Of a stretch of 63,262 nt of DNA, positions 33,015 through 63,262 are shown piece after piece. This stretch comes from an uncultured Candidatus Saccharibacteria bacterium (GTDB taxonomy: Bacteria > Patescibacteriota > Minisyncoccia > Phycocordibacterales > UBA918), in the NCBI GenBank assembly GCA_964638425.1, contig CAZWYM010000004.1, positions 33,301 through 96,562 of the forward strand. The letters are read 5' to 3'. The first letter of the stretch is position 1; each line of letters opens with the position of its first letter. The notes under the pieces are model-generated. The model was not told the origin of the DNA. It did not search any database and saw only the letters and a program-made list of their open reading frames with translations. The translations under genes were made by a program, and so were the position numbers.

Positions 33015-34214
33015 ATGAAAATTGTATTATCACGACGGGAGGTTTTTCTCGCGATGGGGTTGGTGTTTTTGTTTTTATCAGTAACTTTTGCATTTTTACC
33101 AGCACAGGCGAGTGCTTCGGAATGTAGCTTTAGTCGTGACCTTGAATTTGGCGATACGGGTGAGGACGTAAAATGCTTGCAAGAGTATTTGAATGATACT
33201 TCATACACGATTGCACTGAGTGGTGTTGGCTCAAAGGGCATGGAGACAGGTGAATTTAAAACCCTTACCAAAGAAGCGCTCATGAAGTGGCAGAGTGCAA
33301 ACGGAATTGCACCAGCGAGTGGATACTTTGGTCCGAAGTCTCGAGCGACATACATGGTATTGGCGAAGAACGGAATCACCTCTATCCCACCAGTTCCTGT
33401 AGTGTCGCTACCTACACCAAATCCGGTTACTCCAGCGACGGTAAAGTCTTCTGATAATTCGAGTTCGAAAGTAGAGGACGAAAGTTCTCGAGACGTGATT
33501 CTTGATGCAATAGATGCAATAGAGGAAGCAGAAGATGAAATCGACGATAACCCAAGCGCAGAGGATATTGATTCAGCAAAAGAAAACCTTGATGATGCAC
33601 GGAAGGATTTGATGGACGCAATACGGTCGTATTTCGAGGGAGAATTCGATGATGCAGAAAATCAGGCAGAAGACGCATTTAATAATGCGCAAAACGCAAT
33701 CGAGGATGCAGGAGGTGAGTCGAAGAGCCAAGAAGCTGAAGATGCTATAGGCGATGCACAAAATGCAATAGACGACGCACAAGATGAGATCGATACTGCA
33801 GAGGATGATGGAGACGATGTTGATGATGCACAAGATTTGCTCGATGAAGCGCAAGACCTTCTCGATGATGCAGAGGATGCACTCGACAATGACGATGAGG
33901 ATGAAGCTATCGACCTTGCGCAAGATGCAGAAGACAAAGCAAATGACGCAGTTGATGAAATAGGGAACGGCGGAAGTAACGATGTCGAAGATATGCTCGA
34001 CGACGCTCGAGATGACCTCGATGATGCACGGAATGACGTAGATGACGCTATTGATAACAACGACGATGTCGGCGATGCAGAAGACTTCCTCGATGACGCA
34101 GAAGACCTTCTCGATGACGCTGAAGACGCAATCGACAATGGCGATGAGGCTGAGGCAGAAGACTTGATTGATGATGCGCTCGACCTTATAGACGATGCTC
34201 TAAACGAACTCTAG
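33015..34214 (+). CDS. Exported protein with a peptidoglycan-binding (PG_binding_1-like) domain plus a ~240-aa polyacidic helical-repeat region
   Basis: Signal/anchor MKIVLSRREVFLAMGLVFLFLSVTFAFLPAQASA. ..GDTGEDVKCLQEYLN.....G.F...T..A...WQ..NGI.ASGYFG..S is PG-binding-like. It is followed by DDA.D.LDDA.D-type repeats that appear about half Asp/Glu by eye. Confidence 0.75.
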   Translation: MKIVLSRREVFLAMGLVFLFLSVTFAFLPAQASASECSFSRDLEFGDTGEDVKCLQEYLNDTSYTIALSGVGSKGMETGEFKTLTKEALMKWQSANGIAPASGYFGPKSRATYMVLAKNGITSIPPVPVVSLPTPNPVTPATVKSSDNSSSKVEDESSRDVILDAIDAIEEAEDEIDDNPSAEDIDSAKENLDDARKDLMDAIRSYFEGEFDDAENQAEDAFNNAQNAIEDAGGESKSQEAEDAIGDAQNAIDDAQDEIDTAEDDGDDVDDAQDLLDEAQDLLDDAEDALDNDDEDEAIDLAQDAEDKANDAVDEIGNGGSNDVEDMLDDARDDLDDARNDVDDAIDNNDDVGDAEDFLDDAEDLLDDAEDAIDNGDEAEAEDLIDDALDLIDDALNEL

Positions 34215-41513: not shown

Positions 41514-42323
41514 ATGGATATTTTTTCAGGCATTATCCTCGGCATCGTGCAGGGTATTACCGAGTTTTTGCCAGTATCGTCATCAGGACATCTTGTCCTT
41601 ACGCATGCAGTTCTCGGAGTTGAGGACACTTCCTCTCTTGCGTTTGATGCGGTGTTGCAACTCGCAACAGCACTTGCGGTTATTGTGTATTTCTTTGATG
41701 AGCTCTTTATTCTTGTACAGACAGTTCTCCGTAAGCTGGGAAGGCTCCCTGTAAATGAGAAAGATCTCACTATTGTTAAGGCACTTGCGATAGGTACAAT
41801 TCCAGCCATTATCCTCGGACTTCTCCTTGAGTCACTCATGGAGCATGCCTTCCGTAATCCTATTTTGGTTGCGGGGGTACTCGTTCTCGGCTCTCTCTTT
41901 TTTATGTACGCAGAGTACATGTACCAAAATAATTTTCATACCGGGGAGATTGATATGAAAACAGGATGGAAAATCGGTCTGTTCCAGACACTTGCACTTG
42001 TCCCGGGGTTTTCACGTTCCGGGGCAACGATTGCTGGAGGTATGCTTCTCGGACTCAGTCGAAATGACGCAACACGATTTTCATTCCTGCTTGCACTTCC
42101 AATTATTCTTGGTAGCGGACTCAAAAAATTGCTCGAGCTCATTTCATCAGACGCACCGGTAGCATGGGGCTCACTAGGGGTGGGTGCAGTCACAGCTTTT
42201 GTCGTGGGACTATGCGCAATTCACTTCATGATTACGTTTCTTCGTAAGCATACGCTCTGGCCATTCATTTGGTATCGTATTATCTTGGCGTTCTTTGTTT
42301 TGTTTGTAGCATTTTTTGGTTAG
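41514..42323 (+). CDS. uppP: Undecaprenyl-diphosphate phosphatase
   Basis: ..GITEFLPVSSSGHL.. and ..PGFSRSGATIAGG.. BacA/UppP motifs in a polytopic membrane protein. Confidence 0.92.
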   Translation: MDIFSGIILGIVQGITEFLPVSSSGHLVLTHAVLGVEDTSSLAFDAVLQLATALAVIVYFFDELFILVQTVLRKLGRLPVNEKDLTIVKALAIGTIPAIILGLLLESLMEHAFRNPILVAGVLVLGSLFFMYAEYMYQNNFHTGEIDMKTGWKIGLFQTLALVPGFSRSGATIAGGMLLGLSRNDATRFSFLLALPIILGSGLKKLLELISSDAPVAWGSLGVGAVTAFVVGLCAIHFMITFLRKHTLWPFIWYRIILAFFVLFVAFFG

Positions 42324-42336
42324 TAATATATAAAAT

Positions 42337-42831
42337 ATGGATATCATTTCACATGGACTATACGGAGGAGTTGCCTTCGGTCGAAAATCAAAGATTTCAT
42401 ATTGGAAGGCGTTCTTCTTTGGAATCATGCCCGACTTGTTTTCATTTGGGATTCTCTTTGCACTTTCAATTTTGAGCATCGCATCAGGTCCTGACTTTAG
42501 CGCAGGGCCACCAGACCCAGCATCTATCCCACAATACGTACATTCGCTTTACAACGTAACCCACAGCCTCGTAATTGCAGGGATTGTGATTGGTATCGTC
42601 TGGTTTGTACGAAAGAAACCACTGGTAGAGATGTTTGCATGGCCACTGCATATGCTCGTTGATATTCCAACCCACTCAAGCTCATTTTTCCCGACGCCAT
42701 TCCTTTGGCCTGTTTCCGATTTTCATGTTGATGGCATAAGTTGGGGGACGCCGTACATATTTATTCCAAACGTTATCCTGCTCATCGCTCTCTACACCTG
42801 GTTCTATTTTTCAAAAAGAAAGGCGCAATAA
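42337..42831 (+). CDS. Membrane-bound metal-dependent hydrolase-like protein (YdjM/DUF457-like)
   Basis: MDIISHGLYGG... His-rich N-terminus, 4-5 TM segments, ..HMLVDIPTH.. Confidence 0.5.
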   Translation: MDIISHGLYGGVAFGRKSKISYWKAFFFGIMPDLFSFGILFALSILSIASGPDFSAGPPDPASIPQYVHSLYNVTHSLVIAGIVIGIVWFVRKKPLVEMFAWPLHMLVDIPTHSSSFFPTPFLWPVSDFHVDGISWGTPYIFIPNVILLIALYTWFYFSKRKAQ

Positions 42832-42861
42832 AAAAATCCCAAGCATAGCTTGGGATTTTGG
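42831..42861. terminator. Bidirectional terminator
   Basis: aaaaaa-tcccaagc-atag-gcttggga-tttt. Confidence 0.8.
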
Positions 42862-42873
42862 TTTAGCAACTTG

Positions 42874-43200
42874 TTAGGAAACGTAATGGGTACCCACAGG
42901 GTCATCTTTGTCAGCATATGTAGGTACATAGATTTGTCCTATTGGCGCCTTGACCAAGATAGCTTCACTGCCGAAGTCCGCTACGAACAAAAGTTTATTT
43001 ACATCGCGTTCAAATACATCAAATTCTTCTGACGTAATACCGAGTTCTTCAGGCGTTACCCCGAGTGCTCGGAGAGGGAGAGGTCCCATCTTTTTTCCGT
43101 CACGCCGTACTTTACAGAGCGTAAATGCTAAGGCAAGTTCACGAATTCGTTCATCGCTCATTGTGATTTTACTCGCAATTCCAGTACCATCATTTGTCAT
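42874..43200 (-). CDS. Hypothetical protein (108 aa)
   Basis: ATG 43200 is preceded by agAAGGAGGaagt. A promoter-like TTGCGT-16-TATAGT lies upstream. No motif recognised. Confidence 0.6.
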   Translation of the reverse strand: MTNDGTGIASKITMSDERIRELALAFTLCKVRRDGKKMGPLPLRALGVTPEELGITSEEFDVFERDVNKLLFVADFGSEAILVKAPIGQIYVPTYADKDDPVGTHYVS

Positions 43201-43247
43201 ACTTCCTCCTTCTAAGAAACTAAGCCACCATTGACTTATCTGCGACA

Positions 43248-43275
43248 ACTATACCATAAATATTCAAATACGCAA
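43248..43275 (-). promoter_or_regulatory. Sigma-70-like promoter (TTGCGT-16-TATAGT) for the CDS at 42874-43200
   Basis: On the minus strand, -35 is at 43270-75 and -10 at 43248-53. Confidence 0.4.
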
Positions 43276-43610
43276 TAGCTCTGTAAAATAGGTTTTTACG
43301 CTCAAAAGGGCAGGGAGAAGGTGGCCTAGAAGTTAAGGAACAACGTGACTATAACTTCTGGTCTGTGGCCTAGGAAATAATGAACGTAGTGAATATATTT
43401 TCCTGGTCTGCCATCTTTCTTTTTCGTGGAAGAAAGATGGCCTTTCTTCTGCCAAAGAAGAAAAGTCGACCGGTGCAATTAAATAATTACGCTCAAAAGG
43501 GCAGGGAGAAGGTGGCCTAGAAGTTAAAGAACGAAGTGACTATAACTTCTGGTCTGACGTTTTTTCTTCTACACAGAAGAAAAAACGGCCCGCGCAATAA
43601 ATAATTACAC
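43261..43610. repeat. Composite array of direct repeats and hairpins, including two relic copies of the exonuclease gene 3' end
   Basis: 70-nt direct repeats at 43296-43365 and 43487-43556. Hairpins with constant GGCCTAG...CTGGTCTG flanks at 43322-65, 43366-43410 and 43513-56. T/A-arm hairpins at 43411-40, 43441-65 and 43557-87. Confidence 0.85.
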
Positions 43611-44186
43611 TCAAAATGGCAATGAAAACGTCATTCTATGGTTATCCTCTGGAACCCAACCACTTGTATCAAGGGGGATTTCTCGCTTCTTAGTACCGTC
43701 TTTGTAGAGTACTTTTTTATTTTCTAGAGCAAATTCAAATATTTCTTTTGTTACCTTCACATCTTGTTTGCAGTATTTTTTGATTGATTCAATGTCACCC
43801 TCACGCCACCATTTCACTGCTTGCAAACCATTGGCAGATTTCTTTGCTCCTATTGTTGCTTGTGCTACTGAGTCGAGACGAATACGCTTACCAAGACTGA
43901 GTCGGATATCTTCGAGGAGGTCGATACTTTTAATTTGAGTCAAATCACCCGGGTAGTACTTATTGAGGAGTGGAATATCAAAATGGTTGCTGTTGTATCC
44001 AACAAGTACGTCTGCTTCTTCAAAAATTGGCCAGAGCTTTTGTAGCTCATCGTGAGTTGCGACGGTGTATGTGTCGGTACCAGAATCATACGCGCAGGCA
44101 ACAGAAATATCCAAGTCAGCTGGGTTGCTACTTTCGATGTCGGAAAAAATATTTTGAGTTTCTAGGTCAAATACTACGTATCGCAT
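43611..44186 (-). CDS. DEDD-type 3'-5' exonuclease (RNase H-like fold; PolB-exo/YprB-like)
   Basis: MRYVVFDLETQNIF (ExoI), ..LVGYNSNHFDIPLL.. (ExoII), ..KYCKQDVKVT.. (ExoIII). The track start at 44210 is TTG; the first ATG is 44186. Confidence 0.75.
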   Translation of the reverse strand: MRYVVFDLETQNIFSDIESSNPADLDISVACAYDSGTDTYTVATHDELQKLWPIFEEADVLVGYNSNHFDIPLLNKYYPGDLTQIKSIDLLEDIRLSLGKRIRLDSVAQATIGAKKSANGLQAVKWWREGDIESIKKYCKQDVKVTKEIFEFALENKKVLYKDGTKKREIPLDTSGWVPEDNHRMTFSLPF

Positions 44187-44314
44187 AAAATTACATTCTA
44201 AAATCCTCAATTACTTTGTTACCCGTCGTCGAGAGGCCGTTCATCGTATACCACATACGCCTCACGGTCTCTCTCCTTGGCTCCTCGTACTTGAGGATTT
44301 TTGAGATGTAATTT
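44187..44314 (+). repeat. Imperfect-palindrome element, copy B (128 nt)
   Basis: Basal helix aaaattacat-tct-aaaatcctcaa / ttgaggattttt-gag-atgtaattt (~21 bp with an internal loop). Box tactttgtt at 44212-20. Helix gagaggccgt/acggtctctc (one G.U). Apical tcatcgtataccacatacgcctc at 44241-63. Confidence 0.8.
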
Positions 44315-62837: not shown

Positions 62838-63262
62838 GCTCCGGCGGCAGGATTCTCCCATTACATGGGCAGTACACCTTGTCGATACTTTATTTCCTGA
62901 TGTCATAAATTATCAGACAAGGTCTTCGAATCCTGACGTAACAGTTTCCCAAACTGTTACTCCGCCTACGCGCTACAAAACAAAATACCCCTTGCGGGGC
63001 ATTTTGTTTAAATGATTGATAGGCTCCGGCGGCAGGATTCTCCCATTACATGGGCAGTACACCTTGTCGATACTTTATTTCCTGATGTCATAAATTATCA
63101 GACAAGGTCTTCGAATCCTGACGTAACAGTTTCCCAAACTGTTACTCCGCCTACGCGCTACAAAACAAAATACCCCTTGCGGGGCATTTTGTTTAAATGA
63201 TTGATAGGCTCCGGCGGCAGGATTCTCCCATTACATGGGCAGTACACCTTGTCGATACTTTA
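62838..63262. repeat. Head-to-tail array of a 185-nt non-coding unit (2.3 copies visible, truncated by the window end); candidate structured RNA
   Basis: Units at 62838-63022 and 63023-63207, with a third from 63208. I see no differences between them by eye. Each contains a three-way junction, a 10-bp hairpin and a terminator hairpin. Confidence 0.9.

Follow-up and report, generated by a model that had tools for sequence, protein, structure and literature searches.

How does the end of a protein-coding gene come to be repeated, with its amino acid residues preserved, in the non-coding DNA behind it? The question is raised by an array of hairpins in a 63,262-nt stretch of DNA from an uncultured Candidatus Saccharibacteria bacterium (the window, meaning this whole stretch). 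The array lies between an exonuclease gene and uppP, and positions 43296-43631 hold the exonuclease tail, two downstream copies of this tail (relics), three hairpins of a type called A and three of a type called H. Genomes of the candidate phyla radiation (CPR, Patescibacteria) are tiny, and their mobile DNA and accessory-gene turnover are little known. The locus is a concrete strain-variable slot between two housekeeping genes, in which recombination tracts enter the coding 3' ends and appear to leave 'fossil' gene ends. We tentatively propose, with slightly less than even confidence, that the exonuclease-uppP interval is a replacement slot driven by homologous recombination, and that the relics are former functional gene ends left by out-of-register joining.

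A gene tail and its relics

The exonuclease gene ends in MTFSLPF and a stop. Both relics read ATFSLPF-stop with an in-frame TAG just upstream, and the five differences between relic and gene within TFSLPF are synonymous in five of five cases, as a preliminary description of this DNA had reported. Wherever they differ, the relics in the window have C where the gene has G, T or A. That description also asked whether a similarity this short is expected by chance. A 34-mer from the gene tail matches the relics at 28/34 and 24/34 positions; no other site in the window reaches 24, and the maximum in 20 shuffles was 24. The 27-nt relic sequence has no third copy in the 63 kb (0.00 matches expected by chance). 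The similarity had been said to continue for about 25 nt past the stop; it does so for the gene-proximal relic 1, but the distal relic 2 shares just GCGTAA.

The same pattern is found in relatives. Related loci and lineages compared with the window carry L-numbers (L002, L015, L017 and so on). Among seven gene tails and relics compared in all pairs, with 3-7 differences per pair, TFSLPF and the stop are kept in every pair; the silent share of random substitutions is only about 25%. The relics of L002 and L015 have six differences, all at permitted positions (P = 0.0015). Between the window and L002, the non-wobble positions of the relic are identical at 14/14, as against 52% identity at the third-codon positions of the exonuclease. 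Gene tail and relic are 118, 191, 121 and 117 nt apart, spacings that do not preserve the reading frame. Because relic-to-relic and gene-relic differences all keep TFSLPF-stop, decay after a single slip is disfavoured. Judged by these comparisons, the relics do not appear to be neutrally decaying products of such a slip, and the earlier suggestion that they derive from diverged functional alleles is supported. They are either real gene ends, or repeatedly overwritten by them, or constrained at the same positions as the gene. A general caution follows from the locus: codon-periodic conservation in non-coding DNA can reflect displaced or target-mimicking gene ends, without translation.

The C-terminal motif MT[FH]SLPF is conserved, with minor variants, in nearly all of the 120 closest exonuclease homologues. 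Among these 120 it is nearly invariant down to 75% exonuclease identity. We take the motif to resemble sliding-clamp-binding motifs of the QL[SD]LF or QLSLPL type; a putative clamp-binding role would explain why only synonymous change is tolerated in the tail.

Architecture of the array

The array consists of units (spacer, A hairpins, H hairpins), each followed by a relic. Its repeat structure was recovered as first described: two 70-nt direct repeats (43296-43365 and 43487-43556), which are 96% identical, three GGCCTAG hairpins and three T-arm/A-arm hairpins. Hairpins of the form GGCCTAG...CTGGTC lie at 43323-63, 43367-408 and 43514-54, and there are no others in 63 kb (0.04 matches expected by chance). 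Perfect inverted repeats are formed by 43558-70/43575-87 (13 bp) and 43410-21/43430-41 (12 bp), with a weaker one at 43441-65. All hairpins fold as predicted. Intrinsic terminator scoring gave a weak result for the TA2/TA3 pair only, and no score for TA1 or the H hairpins; canonical terminators are found near the array, for example at 42833-42859. L015 and L017 have A hairpins homologous to TA1. The middle junction is a hybrid. H and relic are 96-100% identical between the units, and the spacer behind the gene tail is homologous to the one behind relic 1.

Contigs of the window's lineage assembled from short reads break inside the repeat. The end of L001, the starts of L110 and L111 and the end of L024 are short-read contig ends that stop exactly inside the 27-31-nt repeat or the H hairpin. 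Because short-read contigs break in this way, public assemblies systematically under-represent such arrays. Other contigs with the small gene of the slot start exactly at the repeat and are therefore uninformative on structural variation.

A family of structured hairpins

The H hairpins combine a conserved loop with compensated stems. Across seven copies, 97.4% of cells are paired and 8/11 pairs are changed on both sides; none of 500 shuffles reaches the observed level, and slid controls pair at 27-55%. The small apical stem covaries as well (AC/GT, GC/GC, AT/AT). In front of each H come a perfect A hairpin, in many cases with GTC...GAC at its borders, and a linker [A/G]GAC. A covariance model built from the H copies was used to scan the window and the related loci. 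It matched (about 55-67 bits) three times in the window, in L015, twice in L017 and once in L024, at the contig end. No further copy was found in the 63-kb window, even with the model filters off.

The hairpins might have been confined to this array, a possibility that the preliminary description had allowed for, but H occurs at other intergenic sites in related genomes. The two L017 copies (L017a and L017b) lie within 8.5 kb, one in the dsbA leader and one abutting the uppP stop on the opposite strand. Neither is followed by an exonuclease tail, no flanking direct repeats or target-site duplications were found at either, and the sequences after them have a second match in the locus only at chance level. 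H is missing from L120 and L121, which are the nearest relatives available for L017. At L017 5163-5230 the 3' flank of H (GGGTCAG) provides the stop of uppP on the opposite strand, and the last residues of this protein are IFN, compared with FFG in relatives. The 21 nt after this copy resemble the reverse complement of the L017 exonuclease tail at 15/21 positions, which is near chance.

Searches of wider collections returned no relatives of the element. Rfam 15 gave no match at gathering thresholds in the window, and chance-level matches only at E up to 10 in 43150-43700; the H copies of the related loci had no Rfam match. The array had no blastn match in phage or plasmid collections, a viral pattern scan gave chance matches only, and two viral protein searches returned nothing relevant. 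One viral match to the H pattern was discarded, since it lies inside a phage coding region and has no stem. A metagenome pattern scan for H loop plus relic gave 15 matches, which were attributed to chance: they are pyrimidine-rich, with no exonuclease gene and no stop codon. The A and H hairpins belong to a conserved structured intergenic element family. By its covariation, which is strong, H appears to be a new structured hairpin family with no counterpart in Rfam. The likeliest roles of the A-H element are those of an RNA 3'-end or insulator structure, or of a palindromic recombination-prone element.

Exchange of the slot between two strains

The exonuclease protein of L015 is encoded identically on L122 and L124, which carry the module (tail, spacer, A, H and tail copy), its relic and a 160-aa orphan open reading frame (ORF), and on L123, which has none of these. 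In L123 the exonuclease stop is followed by one long hairpin and then uppP. That units come and go among relatives, as had been anticipated, is thus borne out. In the HisRS region, L122/L124 and L123 are identical at 1153/1176 positions. Exonuclease nt 1-539 contain 5 differences between the module-bearing and the module-free strain. The last 37 nt contain 8 between L122 and L123, all of them synonymous, and the divergence starts at nt 540, 17 nt upstream of the tail repeat. The estimated chance that 8/13 differences fall in 37/576 nt is about 3e-7. The slot itself is unalignable. On its far side the 3' end of uppP is identical at 157/162 positions, with 5/5 mismatches at most 31 nt from the uppP stop.

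Because the differences cluster in this way, the whole slot and the last codons of both flanking genes have been exchanged between strains that are 98-99% identical. The breakpoints lie inside the conserved exonuclease and uppP genes, which is a signature of homologous recombination. The earlier proposal of replacement at the gene 3' end is supported by this pair, in which the last 37 nt were swapped for a synonymously diverged allele. The empty-site tail of L123 has 3 differences to the L015 relic, as against 5 to the L015 functional tail.

Distribution of the module

The common gene order in relatives is HisRS, exonuclease, slot, uppP (convergent) and dsbA. In the exonuclease-uppP interval almost every lineage is different: some have small orphan genes equipped with promoters, some have long hairpins, and in some it is empty. 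In L120 the interval is empty, and the stop codons of exonuclease and uppP overlap. The complete module is found in three lineages only, with exonuclease identities of 100, 92 and 79%: the window, L002/L003 (one unit, with H partly deleted) and L015, also sampled as L122 and L124 (one clean unit). It is absent from about 85 other lineages examined, including those at 83-88% exonuclease identity. A control-calibrated scan of about 85 lineages for copies of a gene's own tail flagged only the window, L002 and L015.

In all three module lineages the H loop motif starts +63 to +69 nt after the stop, and the junction of H flank and relic (G-N-C-A-C, then a Thr codon) is the same. Beyond the last relic, each carries different cargo. 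Two unit subtypes can be recognized, TA1 being like the A hairpin of L015 and TA2 like that of L002. The modules of the window and L015 are about 70% identical, whereas third-codon identity in the adjacent exonuclease is 33%, so either the module is under constraint or it moves at a faster rate than its hosts.

Two candidate relatives of the arrangement were rejected. An own-tail match in L072 is a chance match, antisense inside a coding gene. At L013 3340-3474 (and in L036) a terminator hairpin at the end of a contig is surrounded by an inverted exonuclease 3' end. Probably the assembly has folded back there or strains have been collapsed; the same metagenome-assembled genome has a second partial exonuclease contig. 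At L066 2354-2831, the exonuclease tail is separated from a possible relic, ACA TCC TTG CCA TTT TAA, by a 109-aa orphan gene and a terminator. The candidate lacks the His codon and reads T-SLPF-stop; it hints at a version of the process with a gene as cargo, yet scores no higher than controls.

Origin of the relics

In the replacement-slot proposal, the conserved ends of exonuclease and uppP would act as homology arms, so that imported segments would carry the last tens of nucleotides of the exonuclease gene. Strong selection on the TFSLPF motif would limit these imported 3' ends to synonymous differences. Where a new 3' end and its hairpin module were joined out of register, by unequal or homology-facilitated illegitimate recombination at the junction of H flank and tail, the previous functional end would be stranded behind the module as a relic. 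The second unit of the window would stem from recombination between relic and gene tail, which would give the middle copy its relic-type left half and gene-type spacer on the right. Such events could multiply or remove units. The predicted empty-site junction is ...CATTGCCATTTTGAGCGTAAAAACCTATTTT. We infer that the relics are displaced functional tails, and that they were displaced in this manner. Support comes from the strain-pair exchange, the relic-like tail of L123, codon preservation, the hypervariable slot, the patchy distribution, the hybrid junction and the lack of a recombinase match in the window.

Several observations weigh against this proposal. Block exchange is documented for a single strain pair, from a lineage other than the window's, and the short-read contigs of the window's own lineage merely break at the repeat. 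The identical junction of H flank and relic in three lineages speaks for one founding event. Relics derived from a single event would be expected to decay neutrally; that they stay codon-consistent would need repeated overwriting by functional tails, a putative process, or direct constraint. The pairing homology, only 21-27 nt at about 80% identity, is a poor RecA-type substrate, and the module is more similar between the window and L015 than the saturated third-codon positions would lead one to expect. Because the shared junction, the codon-consistent relics and the module identity are poorly explained, two other explanations stay alive, one in which the units are integrative elements and one in which the module is a cis-acting element.

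The preliminary description had read the locus as an att-like (attachment-site-like) hotspot. In its fullest form, which we regard as fairly unlikely, each unit would be a miniature, cargo-less and non-autonomous site-specific integrative element served by a recombinase in trans, with an att site overlapping the exonuclease stop. In this scheme attL would correspond to the gene tail and attR to the last copy, with an attP-like junction at the middle copy, and the tail-like arm beside H would be a target mimic, constrained only at positions invariant among host genes. This would suit the direct repeats of the gene 3' end that bracket the inserted DNA, here in tandem units and likewise in L002 and L015, as well as the codon-periodic conservation, the patchy distribution and the two unit subtypes. 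H, the relic arm and TTTTGAGCGTAA are identical in both units and the sequence beyond differs, as in P-O-P' and P-O-B' junctions. Hairpins with bulged bases and compensated stems recall the substrates of recombinases that act on folded single strands, and tandem ssrA 3'-end repeats in Dehalococcoides (PMC3146451) and accretion of cis-mobilizable elements (CIMEs; PMC5704250) are published analogues. However, the mechanism is unsupported because no recombinase was found: the 53 window ORFs scanned contain no integrase, Xer-type, recombinase or transposase Pfam family, in agreement with the preliminary description, about 15 of these ORFs having no Pfam match of any kind. The units are only 97-170 nt long, the H modules of L017 have no flanking repeats, duplication of the tail is no general feature of the slot, and no attP-like copy was seen in viral, phage or plasmid collections. 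The sole observed gain or loss breaks at least 17 nt upstream of the 21-nt repeat and inside uppP, not at the repeat. A related and improbable proposal is that the A+H pair is a previously undescribed miniature mobile element of the Paceibacteria, handled as folded single-stranded DNA or as an RNA scaffold, with a wobble-tolerant mimic of the gene tail that directs re-insertion or homing at the exonuclease locus. If the hairpin module is mobile, it would be among the first small mobile elements described in the phylum Patescibacteria; with the tail mimic, it would represent a new site-specific or guide-based targeting system in CPR bacteria.

Distinctly unlikely, in our judgement, is that tail, A, H and tail copy form an old, non-mobile 3'-UTR (untranslated region) or insulator module acting as RNA or as DNA. 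In such a module the second tail copy would itself do a job, perhaps by offering another binding site to a factor that recognizes the 3' end of the gene, and for this reason it would be conserved at the positions conserved in the gene. Changes in unit number would stem from unequal crossing-over, and loss of the module would have been the rule among lineages. The compensatory changes seen in A and in H, the constant place of the H loop and its junction in 3/3 lineages, the preserved module identity between the window and L015 and the invariant non-wobble positions shared with L002 are all in keeping with such a role. Yet presence in 3 of about 90 related lineages would be odd for something useful, L123 does without the module while encoding an identical exonuclease protein, H copies occur elsewhere with no tail copy, no known RNA family matches, and the free wobble positions are explained by no mechanism except coding-sequence mimicry. 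A guide-RNA-like unit, with H as scaffold and the adjacent 21-27 nt as a guide to the exonuclease tail for an RNA-guided homing or targeting system encoded elsewhere, would fit a conserved hairpin followed directly by a copy of a nearby target in constant orientation to it. This is very improbable: the supposed guide has 3-6 mismatches over the 21 nt of its target, the window contains neither TnpB, IscB or Cas nor an IS110-type protein, the sequences after H in L017 have no meaningful second match in that locus, and Rfam gives no match to omega-RNA or HEARO-type families. Translation of the relic by bypassing, by reinitiation or as a small ORF, its peptide being under purifying selection, would make the differences codon-periodic and stop-preserving; with a TAG directly upstream in frame in the window and L002, no start codon and a tail-relic frame that is not kept, it is already close to refuted and scarcely credible. 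Chance similarity or an assembly artefact deserves hardly any credence either. Short-read contigs do break inside the repeat, and L013 has its inverted fold-back, but independent assemblies of four samples or lineages (the window; L002 and L003; L122; L124) gave this architecture, the similarity is above shuffles, and the pattern matches are far above chance.

Relation to known systems

The relics find their closest analogue in e14 and icdC of E. coli. There, the e14 prophage of icd (15 kb, with its own integrase and a defined att site) is accompanied by the 3'-end pseudogene icdC (PMC13626634, citing Hill et al. 1989). The functional gene 3' end belongs to the insert and a displaced copy lies beyond it; nearly all differences between the copies are synonymous, and the alleles are swapped when the copies recombine (PMC13626634). 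Compared with e14, the insert here consists of hairpins and measures 97-170 nt, there is no sign of an integrase, and the sole observed exchange looks like homologous recombination of flanking genes. For tandem gene-3'-end repeats in a hypervariable region, the closest parallels are the ssrA islands of Dehalococcoides and CIME accretion. In these systems a single-copy conserved gene is followed by a hypervariable region, 20-bp copies of the gene 3' end separate successive units, and some units have no integration genes (PMC3146451, PMC5704250). However, the ssrA units are kilobases long, many with a serine-recombinase module, and their repeats are near-identical RNA-gene ends, not wobble-diverged coding ends (PMC3146451, PMC5704250).

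The hairpins themselves are closest to repetitive extragenic palindromes (REPs) and the bacterial interspersed mosaic elements (BIMEs) built from them, or to repeats of the type of miniature inverted-repeat transposable elements (MITEs). These are short structured palindromic intergenic elements, often clustered, with conserved sequence and compensated stems and a patchy occurrence among relatives (PMC3184786). Association with a duplicated gene tail is, however, foreign to both REPs and MITEs (PMC3184786). The array also differs in being one cluster in 63 kb with no terminal inverted repeats; the other H copies show no target-site duplication, and no RAYT or TnpA was seen in the window, nor any HUH transposase.

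In integron attC sites, the base of the stem (the R boxes) is conserved and the loop varies. The array resembles them in hairpins with extrahelical bases, in structure conserved above stem sequence, and in a head-to-tail arrangement beside variable small genes. But H conserves its loop, the opposite of attC, and cassette junctions have no 21-27-nt duplication. An attC array was rejected, as inspection of the sequence found no RYYYAAC/GTTRRRY cores and the window contains no IntI or other integrase. A diversity-generating retroelement was also rejected: the relic differences are not confined to adenines, the protein tail is invariant, and Pfam finds no reverse transcriptase in the window. A CRISPR array, a type III toxin-antitoxin repeat array and read-through into the relic were rejected on sequence grounds. 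The locus lacks defining features of each system to which it was likened. A full-text literature search gave no paper linking CPR bacteria with such repeats.

The window locus and its neighbours

The features of the locus are collected in Table 1. The exonuclease has 3564 homologues at E <= 1e-10; nearly all of the 120 best of these are 191 aa long. Its start is most likely the ATG at 44186, in line with 120/120 of these homologues, and the TTG at 44210 is disfavoured. The protein had no match in PDB or NCBIfam. The 108-aa small gene has no homologue outside its own cluster among 5.8 billion proteins. It is only about 30% identical to its counterpart at L002 3796-4107, and the exonucleases of both genomes are 92% identical. 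The low identity together with the lack of other homologues implies very fast evolution or replacement of this gene. A replication terminus or dif site at the array was rejected, as GC skew does not switch sign near 43 kb.

Table 1. Features of the exonuclease-uppP interval and its borders, in window coordinates
Feature	Position	Strand	Basis or remark
Exonuclease gene (RNase H-fold, PolB-exo-like, 191 aa)	43611..44186	-	Left slot border; Pfam PF13482 and PF10108
Functional gene tail, ACG TTT TCA TTG CCA TTT TGA (TFSLPF-stop)	43611..43631	-	Preceded by ATG (Met): MTFSLPF
Unit 1 spacer, GTGTAATTATTTATTGCGCGGGC, 23 nt	43588..43610	-	Homologous to unit 2 spacer
A hairpin TA1 (unit 1), 13-bp perfect pyrimidine/purine stem, GTGT loop	43558..43587	-	-11.9 kcal/mol as DNA, z = -6.6
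H hairpin H1: 5' CAGAC, compensated stem, conserved 16-nt loop, 3' GGCCAC	43512..43556	-	Covariance model, 61-67 bits
Relic 1, ACC TTC TCC CTG CCC TTT TGA then GCGTAA	43487..43513	-	Followed by gene-type spacer
Unit 2 spacer, TTATTTAATTGCACCGGTCGA	43466..43486	-	Sequence comparison with unit 1 spacer
A hairpins of unit 2: TA2 43441-43465, TA3 43410-43441	43410..43465	-	Mutual weak terminator-like sites
H hairpin H2, stem AGGAAA/TTTCCT, loop and flanks as in other H	43366..43410	-	55-58 bits
H hairpin H3, 93% identical to H1	43321..43365	-	Covariance model match
Relic 2, identical to relic 1 over 27 nt, then unique DNA	43296..43322	-	Repeat comparison
Putative promoter of small gene, extended -10 TGGTATAGT	43248..43290	-	Consensus match only; same motif class before slot genes in relatives
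Orphan small gene, 108 aa from ATG at 43200, slot cargo	42874..43200	-	30% identical to L002 slot gene; no Pfam or NCBIfam match
Membrane-like ORF, 164 aa, slot cargo	42337..42831	+	Absent from most relatives; homologue only in L020, opposite orientation; no Pfam match
uppP (BacA) gene, right slot border	41514..42323	+	Synteny in relatives

Other occupants of the slot and minor observations

Several module-free lineages have a long hairpin of about 110-180 nt in the slot (L123 1828-1961, L008 3577-3758, L114 2577-2680). Its conserved interior is ...ATTTCGAGGCGAAACAAG...CGTACAATG...GTTTCA.CAAAGAAAT..., with no Rfam match; it may be the ancestral slot occupant, a convergent terminator or small RNA. 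A different conserved long hairpin, AAAACGAGCATGAAGGCGT...ACGCCTTCA.G.TCGTTTT, occupies the slot in lineages of 87-88% identity (L004 3780-3930, L112 2700-2860). Directly 3' of the exonuclease in L024 (4634-4703) lies another occupant, the Rfam DUF3800-IX RNA motif, at 52 bits and above the gathering score. Beside the uppP start in L120 (5883-6135) there is a MITE-like element with terminal inverted repeats CCCGTTAGAAGT...ACTTCTAACGGG, a tandem duplicate and ATCCAT flanks; a related copy is found at L015 6089-6280.

Repeats also occur elsewhere in the window. Tandem repeats of 89-102 nt and of 252 nt lie at 1-191 and, within the ORF 301-1911, at 568-1071. Periodic repeats of a 21-nt type are present at 33504-34156, in a 399-aa PG-binding/DUF4398 protein. 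The window closes at 62838-63262 with a tandem repeat, in which an exact 185-nt unit is present in two full copies and a further 55 nt; it may be real or an effect of the assembly end.

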